24,000 nt of DNA, taken from contig CP131915.1 of assembly GCA_030704225.1 (NCBI GenBank), forward strand, positions 3,836,025 through 3,860,024. The letters run 5' to 3'. The stretch comes from Kosakonia sp. H02. Its GTDB lineage: Bacteria > Pseudomonadota > Gammaproteobacteria > Enterobacterales > Enterobacteriaceae. This document shows, piece by piece, positions 6,785-17,890 of the stretch. The stretch's first letter is position 1. Every line of letters starts with the position of its first letter. The notes under the pieces are model-generated. The model was not told the origin of the DNA. It did not search any database and was given only the letters and a program-made list of their open reading frames with translations. Made by a program: the position numbers and the translations under genes.

Positions 6785-8632
6785 TTATTGTGCGGAGATC
6801 CCATCTTCCATACGGTTGAACTTGTAGAAGAACGGAACGGGGTCGACAACCGGTGGATTACTGTATTTTTGCGCTTCCTGCTGCCAAAGGTTTTTCAACT
6901 CTGCCAGTTTTTCCGGATATTTCGCCGCCAGATCGGTTGATTCCGAATAATCATTGGCGGTGTTAAACAGCTGCCATTGGTCGTTTGCGTAGTCCGTGCC
7001 AATCCGGTGCATAGCCACTGCACGCCAGTCACCTTTGGTAATTGCCCTTTGACCACGCAGTTCAAAGTACTGCACATCGCGGGTTTTGGCCGTATCTGAA
7101 TTTAATGTTGGCAGGAATGATTTGCCCGCGACCGGAATTTGTTTTACGCCGTCAACGACGTCAGCAAATTTTGTCCCGGCTGCATCCAGAATGGTGGGGG
7201 CCAGGTCAATAACGCTGACGTACTGGTGGCGAATGACGCCTGGTTTCTGAATCTGTTTAGGCCAGGAGACAATCAGCGGCGTGCGGATCCCGCCTAAATA
7301 GGGCCACAACTTATAGCGACGGAAAGGCGTGCTGCCTGCATAAGCCCACGGGCGCTGATAGAGCATATCTGTATTCGGGCCACCGGCCTCATCCAGATGG
7401 GCATCCATTTCCGCGACAGTGGTGTTATCCATATAGGCACGACGGAAACCACCGTTCGGGCCACCTTCGGAAGCTGCGCCGTTATCGGTAATAAACATGA
7501 CCACGGTGTTATCAAACTGATTGGTGGATTTCAGATACTGAACCAGCCGGCCAATTTGCTCATCCGTGTGAGTAATAAAACCTGCGTATGTTTCCATAAA
7601 GCGACTGAAAACGCGTTTATGTTGTTCATCCAGCGAATCCCAGGCCGCATCACCTTTCTCACGCGGCGGGAGAACAGTATTTGCCGGTATAACGCCCAGT
7701 TTTTTCTGGCGTTCAAAACGTTCGAGGCGCAGTTTATCCCAGCCCTGGCTGTACTTGCCTTTGTAGGCATCAATATAAGATTGCGGTACTTGCAACGGTG
7801 AGTGTGCAGCCCCAAAAGCGAGATAGACAAATTTTGGCTTATCCGACTTTTCTTTGAAGGCACCGATAGCGTGATCGACCAGATCAACAGAGAGGTGATA
7901 GCCCGGTTTGTCCGGTTTGGGGAGTTCTTTATTATTTTCCACTAAATCAGGGTGATATTGCGGTGAATGACCACTCAGGAAGCCGTAGTAGTAATCAAAT
8001 CCTTTCTGTCTCGGCCAGAATTTTTGGTTACGTTCAGGCGCATCTTTGTATTCAGGTGCGATATGCCATTTTCCCAGCGCATAGGTTGAGTAGCCCGCCT
8101 GGTGCAGGGCCTGGGCCATGGTTTGCGCATTCATTGGCATTTCACCGCTGTTGGCTGGGCCTGCTCCCAGCGGCGTTTCCGGCGCAGGTGCATTCGTGCC
8201 TTTCGGCGGCAACTCTTCCATATTGACAGTCTGATTGTTGCGTCCGGTCATCAACGCAGCACGCGTCGGCGCGCACATGGAACTGGTATCGAACCGGTTA
8301 TAGCGCAGTCCCGAATACGCCAGCAAATCGATATTAGGCGTTTTAATCTCAGAGCCAAATGCGCCGATGTCCCCAAACCCCATGTCATCAAGCACAATCA
8401 TCACGACGTTGGGTTGTTGCTTCGTTTTCTCTGCGGTGGGCTGGGTCTGTCCGGCGGCCGTGAAGGACGCCATCAGCATACCTGCCATAGCGGTGCCCGT
8501 AGCCAGAATGCTGAGTAACTTTTTCCGCGAGGGAAAAAGGGGGCTATTACTTTGTTGAACGTCATTGTTCTGGTGTGAAGCGGCAAAAATTTCCTGCCTG
8601 TCTTTATAAAGCGATGTAACGAGCGTTCTCAT
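6785..8632 (-). CDS. Secreted Cys-type arylsulfatase (AtsA-like)
   Basis: A 615-aa ORF. Motifs include NVVMIVLDDMGFGDIGAFGSEIKTPNID, the signature C-A-P-T-R-AALM-TG, and GKWH. The hydrophobic leader LLSILATGTAMAGMLMASFTAAG follows a long N-region. AAGGAA sits 7 nt upstream of the ATG. It starts 33 nt after the porin stop. Confidence 0.85.
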   Translation of the reverse strand: MRTLVTSLYKDRQEIFAASHQNNDVQQSNSPLFPSRKKLLSILATGTAMAGMLMASFTAAGQTQPTAEKTKQQPNVVMIVLDDMGFGDIGAFGSEIKTPNIDLLAYSGLRYNRFDTSSMCAPTRAALMTGRNNQTVNMEELPPKGTNAPAPETPLGAGPANSGEMPMNAQTMAQALHQAGYSTYALGKWHIAPEYKDAPERNQKFWPRQKGFDYYYGFLSGHSPQYHPDLVENNKELPKPDKPGYHLSVDLVDHAIGAFKEKSDKPKFVYLAFGAAHSPLQVPQSYIDAYKGKYSQGWDKLRLERFERQKKLGVIPANTVLPPREKGDAAWDSLDEQHKRVFSRFMETYAGFITHTDEQIGRLVQYLKSTNQFDNTVVMFITDNGAASEGGPNGGFRRAYMDNTTVAEMDAHLDEAGGPNTDMLYQRPWAYAGSTPFRRYKLWPYLGGIRTPLIVSWPKQIQKPGVIRHQYVSVIDLAPTILDAAGTKFADVVDGVKQIPVAGKSFLPTLNSDTAKTRDVQYFELRGQRAITKGDWRAVAMHRIGTDYANDQWQLFNTANDYSESTDLAAKYPEKLAELKNLWQQEAQKYSNPPVVDPVPFFYKFNRMEDGISAQ

Positions 8633-8665
8633 TGCGTGATTCCTTATTAATAAAAGGTATCGGGT

Positions 8666-9946
8666 TTAAAAATCCCACTGGAATTCAATACGGGTAATAT
8701 CGTCGGCTTTCTCTTCCCAGGTATAAGACAGCCATGCGCGCAGGTTAGGCGAGCCAAACCAATATTCCAGCTGCGGGGTAATGCCAGTGCCGCCAAATTC
8801 GTCGTAAGTGTTGTAGAGGATATAACTGAACCCGGAGGCTTTTTCAGGGAACATTTGCGCGCCAACCGTTGCTGAATAACCGAGGCCGCCTTTTGCCCAG
8901 CCGCGTTTTTTAATCAGCGCTTTGGACTCGCTGTTATCGCGTTTTGAATAAGCAGTCTGACCAACAAGACGATATTGTTTCCCGATATTGGCATACCCCG
9001 CCAGCGCCCAGGTATAAAGCGAGGTGCTGTCGCGCGCATATTTTGAATCGGCATTTTTAGTAGTCTGACCAACAAGACGATATTGTTTCCCGATATTGGC
9101 ATACCCCGCCAGCGCCCAGGTATAAAGCGAGGTGCTGTCGCGCGCATATTTTGAATCGGCATTTTTAGTGTCGCCACGTTGTGTTGCGGCGATATCGACG
9201 TTACCCACGATACTGGTGCTGCCAACCGTGACAGAAGGTTGGCCGTTATGCATTGAGGCGTATACGCCATAATCACCTGGACGGAAACTGTAGAGATCAT
9301 CCGTTTGATAACCGATATCGACGCCAAAGATTTTGGATGTGCGATCGTAGCTGCCTGCGAGGAAGAGATTGTCAGGAAATTGTTTCTTATAAAGAAACTT
9401 GCCCGCGTTTTTTACACCTGCATCGGCCTGGGTATCCAGTAATCCCTGCGAACCCATATCGACCGCAAAGAAGCTCCATGTCGCGGTATGTTTACCGTAC
9501 ATAAACGCCCCAAGATCGTCATGGGAGATACCTACCCGGAATTGTTCCCATTTGACGGTATCATCAAAATCATTAAATTCGTTGATGGTTTCTCCATGCA
9601 GACGGCTATAGTTTTCCTGTCCCCGCATCCAGAAATCACCTACCAGCGCCGTTTTATCCGCAAAGTATGTTTTTCCCCGAAGTCGGCCATTCAATTGAAG
9701 ATATTCAGCATTACGGGCATTTTCATTCGTGTATGAACCCTTGACGCGAAATGTCGCATACCAGCGAGAGTCTTTCGACAGGTCGGTCAACGCAGGGACA
9801 GTGCTCCCTTTATTCGCGGAAAGGTAATTTTCTACTACATCGTCACGTTTGCTGGATGTATTTTCTTCAGCGTATACCGAACCAGCAAAGAGTGTTGAGG
9901 CAATCAGTAAAGAGAGAAAAGTACGTGTTGTTTTTATGTTCATCAT
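8666..9946 (-). CDS. Outer-membrane beta-barrel porin-like protein (family not recognised by eye)
   Basis: I prefer the start at MMNIKTTRTFLSLLIASTLFAGSVYA/EENT, a classic Sec signal with an AxA-like cleavage site, over the track start at 10063. The sequence has alternating aromatic/polar beta-strand character and a C-terminal ...EFQWDF with terminal Phe. Confidence 0.7.
   Translation of the reverse strand: MMNIKTTRTFLSLLIASTLFAGSVYAEENTSSKRDDVVENYLSANKGSTVPALTDLSKDSRWYATFRVKGSYTNENARNAEYLQLNGRLRGKTYFADKTALVGDFWMRGQENYSRLHGETINEFNDFDDTVKWEQFRVGISHDDLGAFMYGKHTATWSFFAVDMGSQGLLDTQADAGVKNAGKFLYKKQFPDNLFLAGSYDRTSKIFGVDIGYQTDDLYSFRPGDYGVYASMHNGQPSVTVGSTSIVGNVDIAATQRGDTKNADSKYARDSTSLYTWALAGYANIGKQYRLVGQTTKNADSKYARDSTSLYTWALAGYANIGKQYRLVGQTAYSKRDNSESKALIKKRGWAKGGLGYSATVGAQMFPEKASGFSYILYNTYDEFGGTGITPQLEYWFGSPNLRAWLSYTWEEKADDITRIEFQWDF
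8954..9169. repeat. Perfect 2 x 108-bp in-frame tandem duplication inside the porin gene
   Basis: 8954-9061 and 9062-9169 are identical base for base when compared by hand. They encode TKNADSKYARDSTSLYTWALAGYANIGKQYRLVGQT twice. There is AGT microhomology at the unit ends. Confidence 0.95.
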
Positions 9947-16483: not shown

Positions 16484-16495
16484 CAGGAGCACAGG

Positions 16496-17890
16496 ATGAA
16501 AACGTTCCCGGACAATTTTTTATGGGGTGGCGCGATTGCCGCCAATCAGGTTGAAGGCGCTTATCAGGAAGCGGGTAAAGGACTGTCGACATCAGATGTA
16601 CAACCGCAGGGCGTGTTTGGGCCAGTAATCGAGCGTGTAGCAGGTGATCATGGCATTAAAGATGTGGCGATCGACTTTTATCATCGCTACCCGGAGGATA
16701 TTACATTATTTGCAGAAATGGGTTTCAGTTGCCTGCGCGTTTCTATTGCCTGGACAAGAATTTTCCCCAATGGTGACGAGGAACGACCGAACGAGGCCGG
16801 GCTAGCTTTTTATGACCAGTTGTTTGATGAGCTCGCAAAGCATGGCATTACTCCGCTGGTGACGTTGTCGCATTATGAAATGCCGTGGGGACTGGTGAAA
16901 CAGTACGGCGGCTGGGGAAGCCGGAAGGTCATCGGGTTCTTCGAACGCTATGCGCGCACGGTCTTTACCCGCTACCAAAATAAGGTGAAGTTGTGGCTTA
17001 CCTTTAACGAAATCAATATGTCCCTGCATGCACCGATGACGGGTGTTGGCCTGCCTGAAACCAGCAGCAAAGCGCAGGTGTATCAGGCGATCCATCATCA
17101 ACTGGTAGCCAGCGCTTTAGCGGTGAAAGCCTGCCATGAAATCATTCCGGATGCGAAGATTGGCAATATGCTGCTGGGCGGCCTGGTGTATCCGCTTTCC
17201 TGCAAACCGGCAGATGTGTTTAAAGCGTTACAGGAGAATCGCACCTGGCAATTCTTTGGCGATGTGCAGTGCCGTGGCGCGTATCCTGGCTATATGAAGC
17301 GCTATTTCCGTGATAACGCCATTGAACTTGATATTACGGATGCAGACCTGATGGCGCTGCGGCATACCGTCGATTTTATTTCATTCAGCTACTATATGAC
17401 GGGCTGCGTAACCGCTGACGAAGAACTCAATAAAAAAGCGCGCGGCAATATTCTGAGTATGGTGCCAAACCCCCATCTGGCTGCGTCGGACTGGGGCTGG
17501 CAAATTGACCCGATTGGTCTGCGAACGTTACTGAACGACCTGTGGGATCGTTATCAGAAGCCTTTGTTTATAGTAGAAAACGGGCTTGGCGCGAAAGATA
17601 AAGTCGAGGCAGATGGCACAATTCTGGACGACTACCGAATCAGCTATCTCAACGATCATCTAGTCCAGGTGCGTGAAGCCATTGCAGACGGTGTGGACGT
17701 CATGGGATATACCGCCTGGGGGCCCATTGACCTTGTGAGTGCCTCTAAAGCTGAGCTTTCCAAACGGTACGGTTTTATCTATGTCGACCGGGATGATAAC
17801 GGAGAGGGCAGCCTCGCACGCAGTCGCAAAAAAAGCTTCTACTGGTATCAAAAAGTTATCGCCAGCAAGGGGGCAAGCTTGCAGGAGTAG
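16496..17890 (+). CDS. GH1 6-phospho-beta-glucosidase (BglB/AscB/BglA-like)
   Basis: A 464-aa ORF. Motifs include [15 protein letters not shown], the acid/base motif TFNEINM and the nucleophile motif IVENGLG. There is an AGGAG RBS, and it starts 13 nt after the EII stop. Confidence 0.9.

Follow-up and report, generated by a model that had tools for sequence, protein, structure and literature searches.

The 24,000-nucleotide stretch of the Kosakonia sp. H02 chromosome analysed here (the window) encodes a bgl-type beta-glucoside phosphotransferase system (PTS) together with two exported sulfatases, an anaerobic sulfatase-maturing enzyme (anSME) and an outer-membrane protein. We consider it probable that this locus is a regulon for the use of sulfated beta-glucosides as carbon source, that it is controlled by the antiterminator BglG acting at ribonucleic antiterminator (RAT) sites, and that sulfatases and PTS are functionally coupled. 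The plus-strand unit has the order RAT/terminator, Ser-type sulfatase, anSME, bglG, RAT/terminator, bglF, bglB, and a divergent unit on the minus strand reads RAT/terminator, outer-membrane protein, Cys-type sulfatase. Throughout, SulfSer denotes the sulfatase encoded at 10571-12301, SulfCys that at 6785-8632, and OMP the outer-membrane protein at 8666-9952. A preliminary description of this DNA had already proposed that sulfatases, maturase and OMP are tied to the bgl PTS by a common antiterminator, and this core reading is supported by the RAT leaders of the units and by the recurrence of the combination across genera.

Gene content of the locus

Genes were called by Pfam and NCBIfam profile searches of the window proteins, which are identical to the GenBank entries WLI76456 to WLI76468. 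The family matches bear out the previously described gene set and positions for every named gene; the OMP is discussed separately below. The core of the locus is a bgl system. Its antiterminator (13636-14469, plus strand; NF007295, 378 bits vs a cut-off of 322) is of the BglG/LicT type with PTS regulation domains (PRDs), combines a CAT_RBD domain (PF03123, 7e-24) with two PF00874 PRD stretches, and appears to have no leader of its own. Profile classification places the enzyme II (14612-16483, plus strand) among the beta-glucoside EIIBCA permeases (NF007335, 1064 bits vs 894), as a BglF orthologue. The last gene of the unit (16496-17890, plus strand) encodes a BglB orthologue, a 6-phospho-beta-glucosidase of glycoside hydrolase family 1 (GH1; NF007356, 640 bits vs 623), in which both the NEI acid/base motif and the ENG nucleophile motif are present. 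Amino acid identity to the E. coli proteins is 59% for BglG, 56.5% for BglF and 75% for BglB.

Upstream of bglG lie the genes for SulfSer (10571-12301, plus strand; PF00884, 7e-39), an exported, S1_8-like formylglycine sulfatase with a Sec signal and a Ser-type SAPSR motif, and for the anSME (12358-13584, plus strand; TIGR03942, 486 bits vs a cut-off of 349), a radical-SAM enzyme with Radical_SAM (PF04055) and SPASM (PF13186) domains and a CNIDCTYC motif. The divergent unit encodes the OMP (8666-9952, minus strand), a beta-barrel of the outer membrane that is predicted to fold like a porin and belongs to an unannotated family, and SulfCys (6785-8632, minus strand; PF00884, 3e-64), an exported formylglycine sulfatase with a Tat-like signal and a Cys-type CAPTR motif.

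RAT switches in front of the sulfatase units

Scanned against Rfam at the gathering threshold the window gave no match, and the RATs were therefore sought by pattern. The 30-nt pattern GGATTGTTACTG-N7-CAGGCAAAACC occurs three times in the window, at 10226-10255 on the minus strand and at 10464-10493 and 14493-14522 on the plus strand, against a chance expectation of 0 in sequence shuffles. The flanks of all three copies are exactly those of the E. coli bgl RATs, and the RATs of the SulfSer and OMP leaders are identical to each other. Each copy overlaps a terminator hairpin that has its 5' arm starting within the RAT and a U-run at its end. A generic terminator scan overlooks RAT terminators owing to their long loops, and the leaders were examined by folding instead. 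The leader of the OMP-SulfCys unit (10175-10255, minus strand, with the RAT at 10255-10226) folds with -31.7 kcal/mol (z -6.3), that of the SulfSer-anSME-bglG genes with terminator t1 (10464-10540, plus strand) with -25.9 kcal/mol (z -3.3), and that of bglF-bglB with terminator t2 (14493-14565, plus strand) with -31.9 kcal/mol (z -4.0). The upper stem of the RAT also covaries, with compensatory changes in its two arms: among 33 RAT copies of eleven genera, taken from the loci collected in this analysis, we count 27 double-sided changes vs 10.7 +/- 2.5 after shuffling, and none of 500 shuffles reached the observed value. Control of the sulfatase units by RAT and BglG is, in our view, very likely.

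No terminator separates the maturase gene from bglG, as had been stated in the preliminary description. The spacers at 12296-12360 and 13580-13640 have no structure by folding (z about 0 to 1), the 50-nt spacer between anSME and bglG contains neither a hairpin by folding nor a RAT remnant, and the terminator scan gave only weak 5-pair stems, which lie within coding sequence. Since the spacers are unstructured and the second of them holds no decayed RAT, bglG appears to lack a leader of its own and to depend on the RAT/t1 upstream of SulfSer. The mechanical open reading frame of SulfSer starts at a TTG at 10385 and thereby spans RAT and terminator. The true start is the ATG at 10571, and an annotation that uses the long start would conceal the RAT leader.

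Between the two divergent leaders lies a control region of 208 bp (10256-10463, not assigned to a strand) with two CRP-like sites, at 10324-10339 (TGTGAGATGACTCACT) and at 10392-10407 (TGCGATCAGTGTCACA). In a consensus scan of the 24 kb these two were the only matches to TGTGA-N6-TCACA with at most one mismatch, and both are kept in Superficieibacter and Sodalis. The sites, as predicted elements, argue for control by carbon and not by sulfur.

Recurrence of the combination across genera

For comparison, 80 species-representative loci and eight further loci were collected, the window proteins were mapped onto them by tblastn, and about 1.6 Mb were scanned for RATs. The components occur together in at least five gene orders, in Superficieibacter, Sodalis, Phytobacter, Salmonella, Proteus, Pectobacterium, Serratia, Mixta, Vibrio and Celerinatantimonas. 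Confinement to a single strain would have spoken against the earlier proposal; the adjacency instead recurs in rearranged form in more than ten genera, and the survey of gene neighbourhoods finds antiterminator/PTS, sulfatase and anSME genes together across genera, with RAT/terminator leaders before the sulfatase units. The sulfatase genes directly follow a RAT/terminator in nearly all genera with the combination, and the RAT pattern was found in none of 60 loci that hold solely distant sulfatase homologues (<45% identical).

The layouts differ considerably. Superficieibacter has the same ten-gene island, located beside mutS and not ychF, and Sodalis endolongispinus has the same island with frameshifts; in both a RAT precedes the sulfatase unit. 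Phytobacter has the order bglG-bglF-bglB-OMP, convergent to SulfSer-anSME and divergent from SulfCys, with five RAT/terminators, one each ahead of SulfCys, SulfSer, OMP, bglF and bglG. The Salmonella layout is like that of Phytobacter, again with a RAT before the sulfatase unit. Proteus carries a variant RAT-like leader followed by OMP-SulfCys-anSME-SulfSer, next to paralogous antiterminator, EII and GH1 genes. The Pectobacterium locus has a variant RAT and the order EIIBCA-antiterminator-SulfSer-sulfatase-anSME, followed by an OmpC-type porin and another sulfatase, with the GH1 gene on the opposite strand. Serratia entomophila shows RAT, anSME, BglH-like porin and SulfSer, and in Mixta the RAT lies immediately 5' of SulfSer. 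RATs are also present with the genes EIIBC-GH1-OMP-SulfCys-anSME of Vibrio parahaemolyticus and EIIBC-OMP-SulfSer-SulfCys of Celerinatantimonas, and in Vibrio ruber and V. mangrovi a RAT/terminator likewise stands before the sulfatase unit. In E. coli, the 11-kb locus has no megablast match (5,426 complete genomes), and the DNA match to E. coli is confined to the bglGF part, at 64% identity.

Some RAT leaders outside Kosakonia have features of their own. In several PTS leaders of Vibrio and Celerinatantimonas we observed tandem RATs that are spaced by roughly 100-170 nt and each have a terminator of their own (Celerinatantimonas sp. YJH-8, locus L008, 1162-1358 and 6993-7117; L007, 6769-6897; L010, 18310-18450). 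Furthermore, in the sulfatase/PTS cluster of Vibrio ruber (L010, 16097-18175) a RAT/terminator precedes a gene for a dCache-type methyl-accepting chemotaxis protein, which suggests antiterminator-controlled chemotaxis toward the same substrate in this species.

The sulfatases and their maturase

The nature of the sulfatases gives hints about the substrate. The Sec signal peptide of SulfSer ends VQA|AD, and the formylglycine residue would be formed from S79. The best solved relatives of SulfSer all belong to sulfatase subfamily S1_8 (9bef, 3e-57 and 197 bits; 9bb9, 191 bits; 9bba, 136 bits; human SGSH, 120 bits), with alignments over nearly the full length, and the next subfamilies reach 111 bits or less. 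SulfSer orthologues are 48-90% identical, and numerous Gammaproteobacteria have one. The characterised S1_8 proteins are exo-enzymes that remove the position-2 sulfate of a terminal pyranose, in galactose 2-sulfate (Gal-2S), xylose 2-sulfate (Xyl-2S) and N-sulfated glucosamine (GlcNS) (PMC12549532).

SulfCys, by comparison, has the P. aeruginosa arylsulfatase 1hdh as its nearest solved relative (1.6e-83), which suggests affinity for an aromatic or other sulfate ester, and its orthologues in nine other genera are 63-87% identical. Its formylglycine would arise from the Cys of CAPTR. The Tat-like signal reads SRKKLL...AAG, orthologues have N-termini such as SQRRFLK or FRRKKL, and the signal is canonical in Celerinatantimonas. 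The predicted Sec signal of SulfSer and the Tat-like signal of SulfCys fit an action of both enzymes in the periplasm.

In both sulfatase lineages orthologues with 57-87% identity differ in whether Ser or Cys occupies the formylglycine position (L001, L008, L081, L083, L084, L085). Ser is the commoner residue in both, and most other genera have a Ser-type enzyme in the SulfCys lineage, among them Phytobacter, Salmonella, Proteus and Celerinatantimonas. Such flipping is consistent with a maturase that can accept both residues. Ser-type sulfatases require an AtsB-type maturase, and the constant presence of the anSME fits this requirement.

SulfSer orthologues are also found outside the Gammaproteobacteria. 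In all six Prevotella-type loci an orthologue (47-50% identity) lies beside a glycosidase of glycoside hydrolase family 3 (GH3). These clusters further encode a hybrid two-component system (HTCS) regulator, a 753-residue protein and one or more additional sulfatases, and an anSME gene is present where the contig extends far enough. PTS, antiterminator and RAT are absent from the Prevotella-type clusters. It seems plausible from the gene content that a periplasmic GH3 enzyme stands in for BglF and BglB, so that the sulfatase would again go together with a step that cleaves a beta-glycoside. Just upstream of the sulfatase orthologue and GH3 there is always the gene for the protein of about 753 residues (7666-9927 in L014; also in L012, L013, L015, L016 and L019). 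This protein has no sequence match in Pfam or the PDB, and possibly takes part in the same pathway as an enzyme not yet characterised.

A porin-like outer-membrane protein dedicated to the system

The OMP has no Pfam match even at E = 10, no phmmer match to any solved PDB porin and no blastp match to E. coli BglH, and its sequence falls into neither Porin_1 nor Porin_4 of Pfam. It carries a signal peptide and a C-terminal F. The mechanical open reading frame extends to 10063, and the probable start is the methionine of MMNIKT... An AlphaFold model of a close homologue (P0202) has a mean predicted local distance difference test score (pLDDT) of 84 and a predicted template-modelling score (pTM) of 0.79. 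Compared with the PDB by Foldseek, this model has OmpU, OmpF and PhoE as top matches (E about 5e-13, probability 1.0), at template-modelling scores of 0.58-0.69 and 12-15% identity, and is thus predicted to be a large antiparallel beta-barrel like those of the 16-stranded porins. Hence, a porin-like channel is supported by the predicted fold and by the genomic context. Among 5.8 billion proteins the family comprises 25 clusters, which are confined to Enterobacterales, Celerinatantimonas and Vibrio. Sulfatase and anSME genes are present in all 11 contexts examined, and the OMP gene mostly lies directly 5' of the gene for the SulfCys orthologue. This marks the predicted pore as one dedicated to the sulfatase/PTS system. 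The porin that the preliminary description had placed in the divergent RAT-controlled unit can be kept as to its RAT leader and its porin-like fold. It is not a member of the BglH family, and judged by its sequence the OMP belongs to a new, unannotated family and is not a relocated BglH.

The OMP gene of the window contains an exact in-frame tandem duplication of 108 bp (8954-9169, minus strand; 2.0 copies at 100% identity according to Tandem Repeats Finder), which adds 36 residues over one predicted beta-hairpin. None of the 24 OMP homologues has it, and it is thus found in this strain only. We considered an enlargement of the barrel, and rejected it for want of support, as AlphaFold leaves the extra copy disordered (pLDDT 23-36). 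The duplication may have arisen very recently, may be a damaging mutation, or may stem from an error in the assembly.

The island and its surroundings

The locus adjoins the conserved ispE-prs-dauA-ychH-pth-ychF block. The OMP-SulfCys unit ends at an intrinsic terminator (6742-6764, minus strand; 10-pair stem with six G-C pairs, followed by a T-run), and the gap between bglB and ychF contains a bidirectional terminator (17911-17938, not assigned to a strand), a 12-pair hairpin between A- and T-runs. On the other side of SulfCys lies an accessory module (2783-6726; Pfam/NCBIfam) that consists of a major facilitator superfamily (MFS) transporter of the HpaX/galactonate-like type (2783-4129, minus strand), a cytoplasmic Cys-type sulfatase (4152-5648, minus strand) and a divergent LysR gene (5773-6726, plus strand), without any RAT. 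The sulfatase of this module has a CIPAR motif and no signal peptide, and its nearest solved relatives are 9koq, 7oz8 and choline sulfatases. Order and position of the module are kept in Superficieibacter and Sodalis, and it is absent from the other layouts. It might process a sulfated aglycone or an unrelated organosulfate, and can be linked to the bgl system only tentatively.

The island of about 15 kb, beside ychF in Kosakonia sp. H02 (window 17890-17957) and beside mutS in Superficieibacter sp. BNK-5 (L083, 1-2050), looks as if it has been transferred horizontally as a whole. ychF does not lie within the fetched flanks of the Sodalis island, and the identity of the island proteins is 81-91%. 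In Candidatus Sodalis endolongispinus (L002, 2300-17300) the island is decaying: MFS transporter, SulfCys, OMP, SulfSer, BglF and GH1 are each covered by two tblastn pieces, and anSME and BglG are still intact.

A proposed pathway and its alternatives

Taken as a regulon for sulfated beta-glucosides, the locus would work as follows. Transcription in both directions would start from CRP-dependent promoters in the 208-bp region, and the leader transcripts would end at their terminators unless BglG binds the RAT hairpin. Read-through on the minus strand would yield the porin-like channel and the Tat-exported, arylsulfatase-related SulfCys; on the plus strand, co-transcription would yield the Sec-exported, S1_8-like SulfSer, the cytoplasmic anSME and then BglG itself, and the second RAT/terminator would gate bglF and bglB. 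Ahead of export, the anSME would turn the active-site Ser or Cys of both sulfatases into formylglycine. A sulfated glucoside might enter via the dedicated outer-membrane pore and lose its sulfate esters to the two periplasmic sulfatases. BglF would then import the neutral beta-glucoside, phosphorylating it at O-6, and BglB would split the phosphorylated glucoside in the cytoplasm. In E. coli, idle BglF phosphorylates and thereby inactivates BglG, and transporting BglF frees it. By analogy, BglG of the window system would be switched through phosphorylation by BglF, and since the E. coli permease frees BglG only while it transports, the inducer would be the desulfated product. Priming of this induction loop would require basal read-through of the leaders, after which the loop would reinforce itself.

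As to the substrate, our best guess is aryl or flavonoid beta-D-glucosides that carry sulfate on the aglycone and/or on the sugar, where the S1_8 enzymes would point to position 2. The sulfate at O-6 and the glucosinolates proposed in the preliminary description are not favoured, because the closest relatives of SulfSer with known activity attack position 2 of the pyranose. A natural aryl beta-glucoside 2''-sulfate is known from seagrass, thalassiolin B, chrysoeriol 7-beta-D-glucopyranosyl-2''-sulfate (PMC3037906). A substrate of this type would suit the marine Vibrio and Celerinatantimonas hosts, and we mention it as a lead, not as a result. One may go further and see here a widespread, so far undescribed pathway for sugar-sulfated beta-glucosides, such as seagrass flavone 7-O-beta-D-glucopyranosyl-2''-sulfates or other plant or algal compounds, which would have as its key enzyme an exo-acting beta-glucoside 2-O-sulfatase, a novel activity, within or near S1_8, and would also comprise a new porin family and BglG antitermination in Enterobacterales and Vibrionales, with a GH3-based counterpart in gut and rumen Prevotella. 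We offer this wider proposal tentatively and consider it possible rather than probable.

Several observations weigh against a coupling of sulfatases and PTS in one pathway. The system holds all parts needed for plain aryl-beta-glucosides, and co-regulation alone is hence no proof of a shared substrate for sulfatases and PTS. The placement of SulfSer closest to S1_8 is based on best matches to solved structures at about 200 bits, and to our knowledge no sulfatase acting on a glucoside or glucose sulfate has been characterised in S1_8. In Tatumella and Vibrio sp. RE88, SulfSer and anSME are present, but no RAT can be recognised and no PTS lies nearby. In the window itself bglG may have an internal promoter within the anSME gene, and the 36-residue duplication possibly impairs the OMP.

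Other explanations have to be weighed against these facts. The co-regulation might couple signals instead of enzymatic steps: beta-glucosides would then be a cue for plant or algal tissue, and the sulfatases would attack other compounds of the niche, for example sulfated polysaccharide fragments, aryl sulfates or sulfated peptides, with products that bypass BglF and BglB. This is in line with PTS and GH1 proteins that are ordinary BglF and BglB orthologues and need no sulfatase for arbutin or salicin, with Mixta and Serratia, where the RAT-led SulfSer and anSME genes are PTS-free within 10 kb, and with the RAT before the chemoreceptor gene of Vibrio ruber, by which RAT control exceeds catabolism. 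However, sulfatases share one operon with EII and GH1 in V. parahaemolyticus, a Vibrio metagenome-assembled genome (MAG), Celerinatantimonas and Pectobacterium, and the orthologues in Bacteroidota are paired with a GH3 glycosidase. Moreover, a BglH-like sugar porin is encoded between anSME and SulfSer in Serratia, and the S1_8 relatives are exo-acting carbohydrate sulfatases. We therefore consider mere signal coupling unlikely. Sulfatases could also serve to supply sulfate, or share an island with the PTS by chance, without any tie between the two. Bacterial arylsulfatases are classically enzymes of sulfate starvation, and the island also bears the unrelated-looking MFS, cytoplasmic sulfatase and LysR module. 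The sulfatase units, however, have RAT/terminator leaders and no independent regulation, the association survives at least five rearranged layouts across orders, and the CRP-like sites speak for carbon control. In view of the RAT leaders and the recurrence we reject both sulfur scavenging and chance adjacency, which appear highly improbable.

A glucosinolate route would involve desulfation in the periplasm, uptake of the beta-thioglucosides by BglF and their cleavage by BglB, giving detoxification as well as glucose. Several of the hosts live with plants, cause plant disease or live in symbiosis with insects that feed on plants (Pectobacterium, Kosakonia, Phytobacter, a Pantoea stink-bug symbiont, Sodalis), and reviews tie PTS and phospho-beta-glucosidases to bacterial glucosinolate metabolism. 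The glucosinolate sulfatases of insects belong to the same formylglycine superfamily. Plant myrosinases replace the acid/base Glu, whereas the window BglB retains it in an O-glycosidase-type NEI motif, and the characterised relatives of SulfSer act on sugar 2-sulfates and 2-sulfamates and not on N-O-sulfates. Marine Vibrio and Celerinatantimonas and Prevotella MAGs have the system just as well, and glucosinolates do not suggest themselves as substrates there. Glucosinolates are less attractive because of the conserved acid/base Glu, the specificity of the S1_8 relatives and the broad host range, and we judge such a route rather improbable. Hence, the use of sulfated beta-glucosides through coupled sulfatases and PTS remains the reading that we prefer.

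Comparison with known systems

Few models of RNA antitermination or of cryptic genes are as old as the bgl operon. That its RAT switch precedes genes for sulfatase, maturase and pore across numerous genera widens the BglG regulon beyond the transport and cleavage of sugars. Plants, seagrasses and algae produce many sulfated glycosides, and we know of almost nothing about their consumption by bacteria other than Bacteroidota. The locus described here offers a compact candidate set of two sulfatases, one maturase, one pore and one PTS, which likely includes a new sulfatase specificity and a new family of outer-membrane channels. Its hosts include plant pathogens (Pectobacterium), plant-associated Kosakonia and Phytobacter, insect symbionts and marine Vibrio and Celerinatantimonas, indicating a possible ecological relevance. 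In a literature search that covered few subscription journals we found no published description of sulfatases under BglG/RAT control.

The closest regulatory relative is bglGFBH of E. coli. BglG, BglF and BglB are orthologous, the RAT flanks GGATTGTTACTG...CAGGCAAAACC are identical, every RAT overlaps a terminator, and in both systems one RAT lies ahead of the transcription unit of the antiterminator and another ahead of bglF. A main difference is that the window has sulfatase and anSME genes between RAT/t1 and bglG, and that a third RAT governs the divergent genes for pore and sulfatase. The window pore is unrelated to the LamB-type BglH, and among the loci studied here a BglH-like porin occurs only in Serratia entomophila.

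With respect to the sulfatases, Klebsiella pneumoniae atsBA encodes a Ser-type periplasmic arylsulfatase, AtsA, and its radical-SAM maturase, AtsB. An exported Ser-type sulfatase beside a radical-SAM/SPASM maturase is common to the window, to atsBA and to E. coli ydeN/ydeM and aslA/aslB, and in the Klebsiella system, as proposed here, maturation takes place in the cytoplasm prior to export. In contrast to atsBA, the window pair is not a stand-alone operon; it follows a RAT/terminator and lies upstream of bglG, under PRD-type carbon-source control, and the sulfatase is S1_8-like and not AtsA-like. The lambda-carrageenan sulfatases S1_8A/B/C of Pseudoalteromonas and human SGSH are the best solved relatives of SulfSer, which differs from them in being Ser-type, in an extra C-terminal segment and in its PTS context instead of a polysaccharide-utilisation locus.

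The nearest published parallel that we found is an accessory island of Streptococcus pneumoniae, in which a cellobiose-type PTS, a ROK regulator, a sulfatase and a sulfatase-modifying factor are encoded and sulfatase and PTS are co-regulated (PMC3283741). In that study no sulfatase activity was detected (PMC3283741). As in the window, the PTS genes, which serve beta-linked sugars, accompany those of a sulfatase and its maturase (PMC3283741). The pneumococcal system differs in its Gram-positive host, which has no periplasm or pore, and in combining a Lac/Cel-family PTS with a ROK repressor, where the window has an EII of the Glc/Bgl family and PRD/RAT control. The sulfatase clusters of Bacteroidota share with our proposal that the sulfate is removed first and the beta-glycoside is cleaved thereafter. 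They differ in being regulated by hybrid two-component systems, without PTS, antiterminator or RAT.

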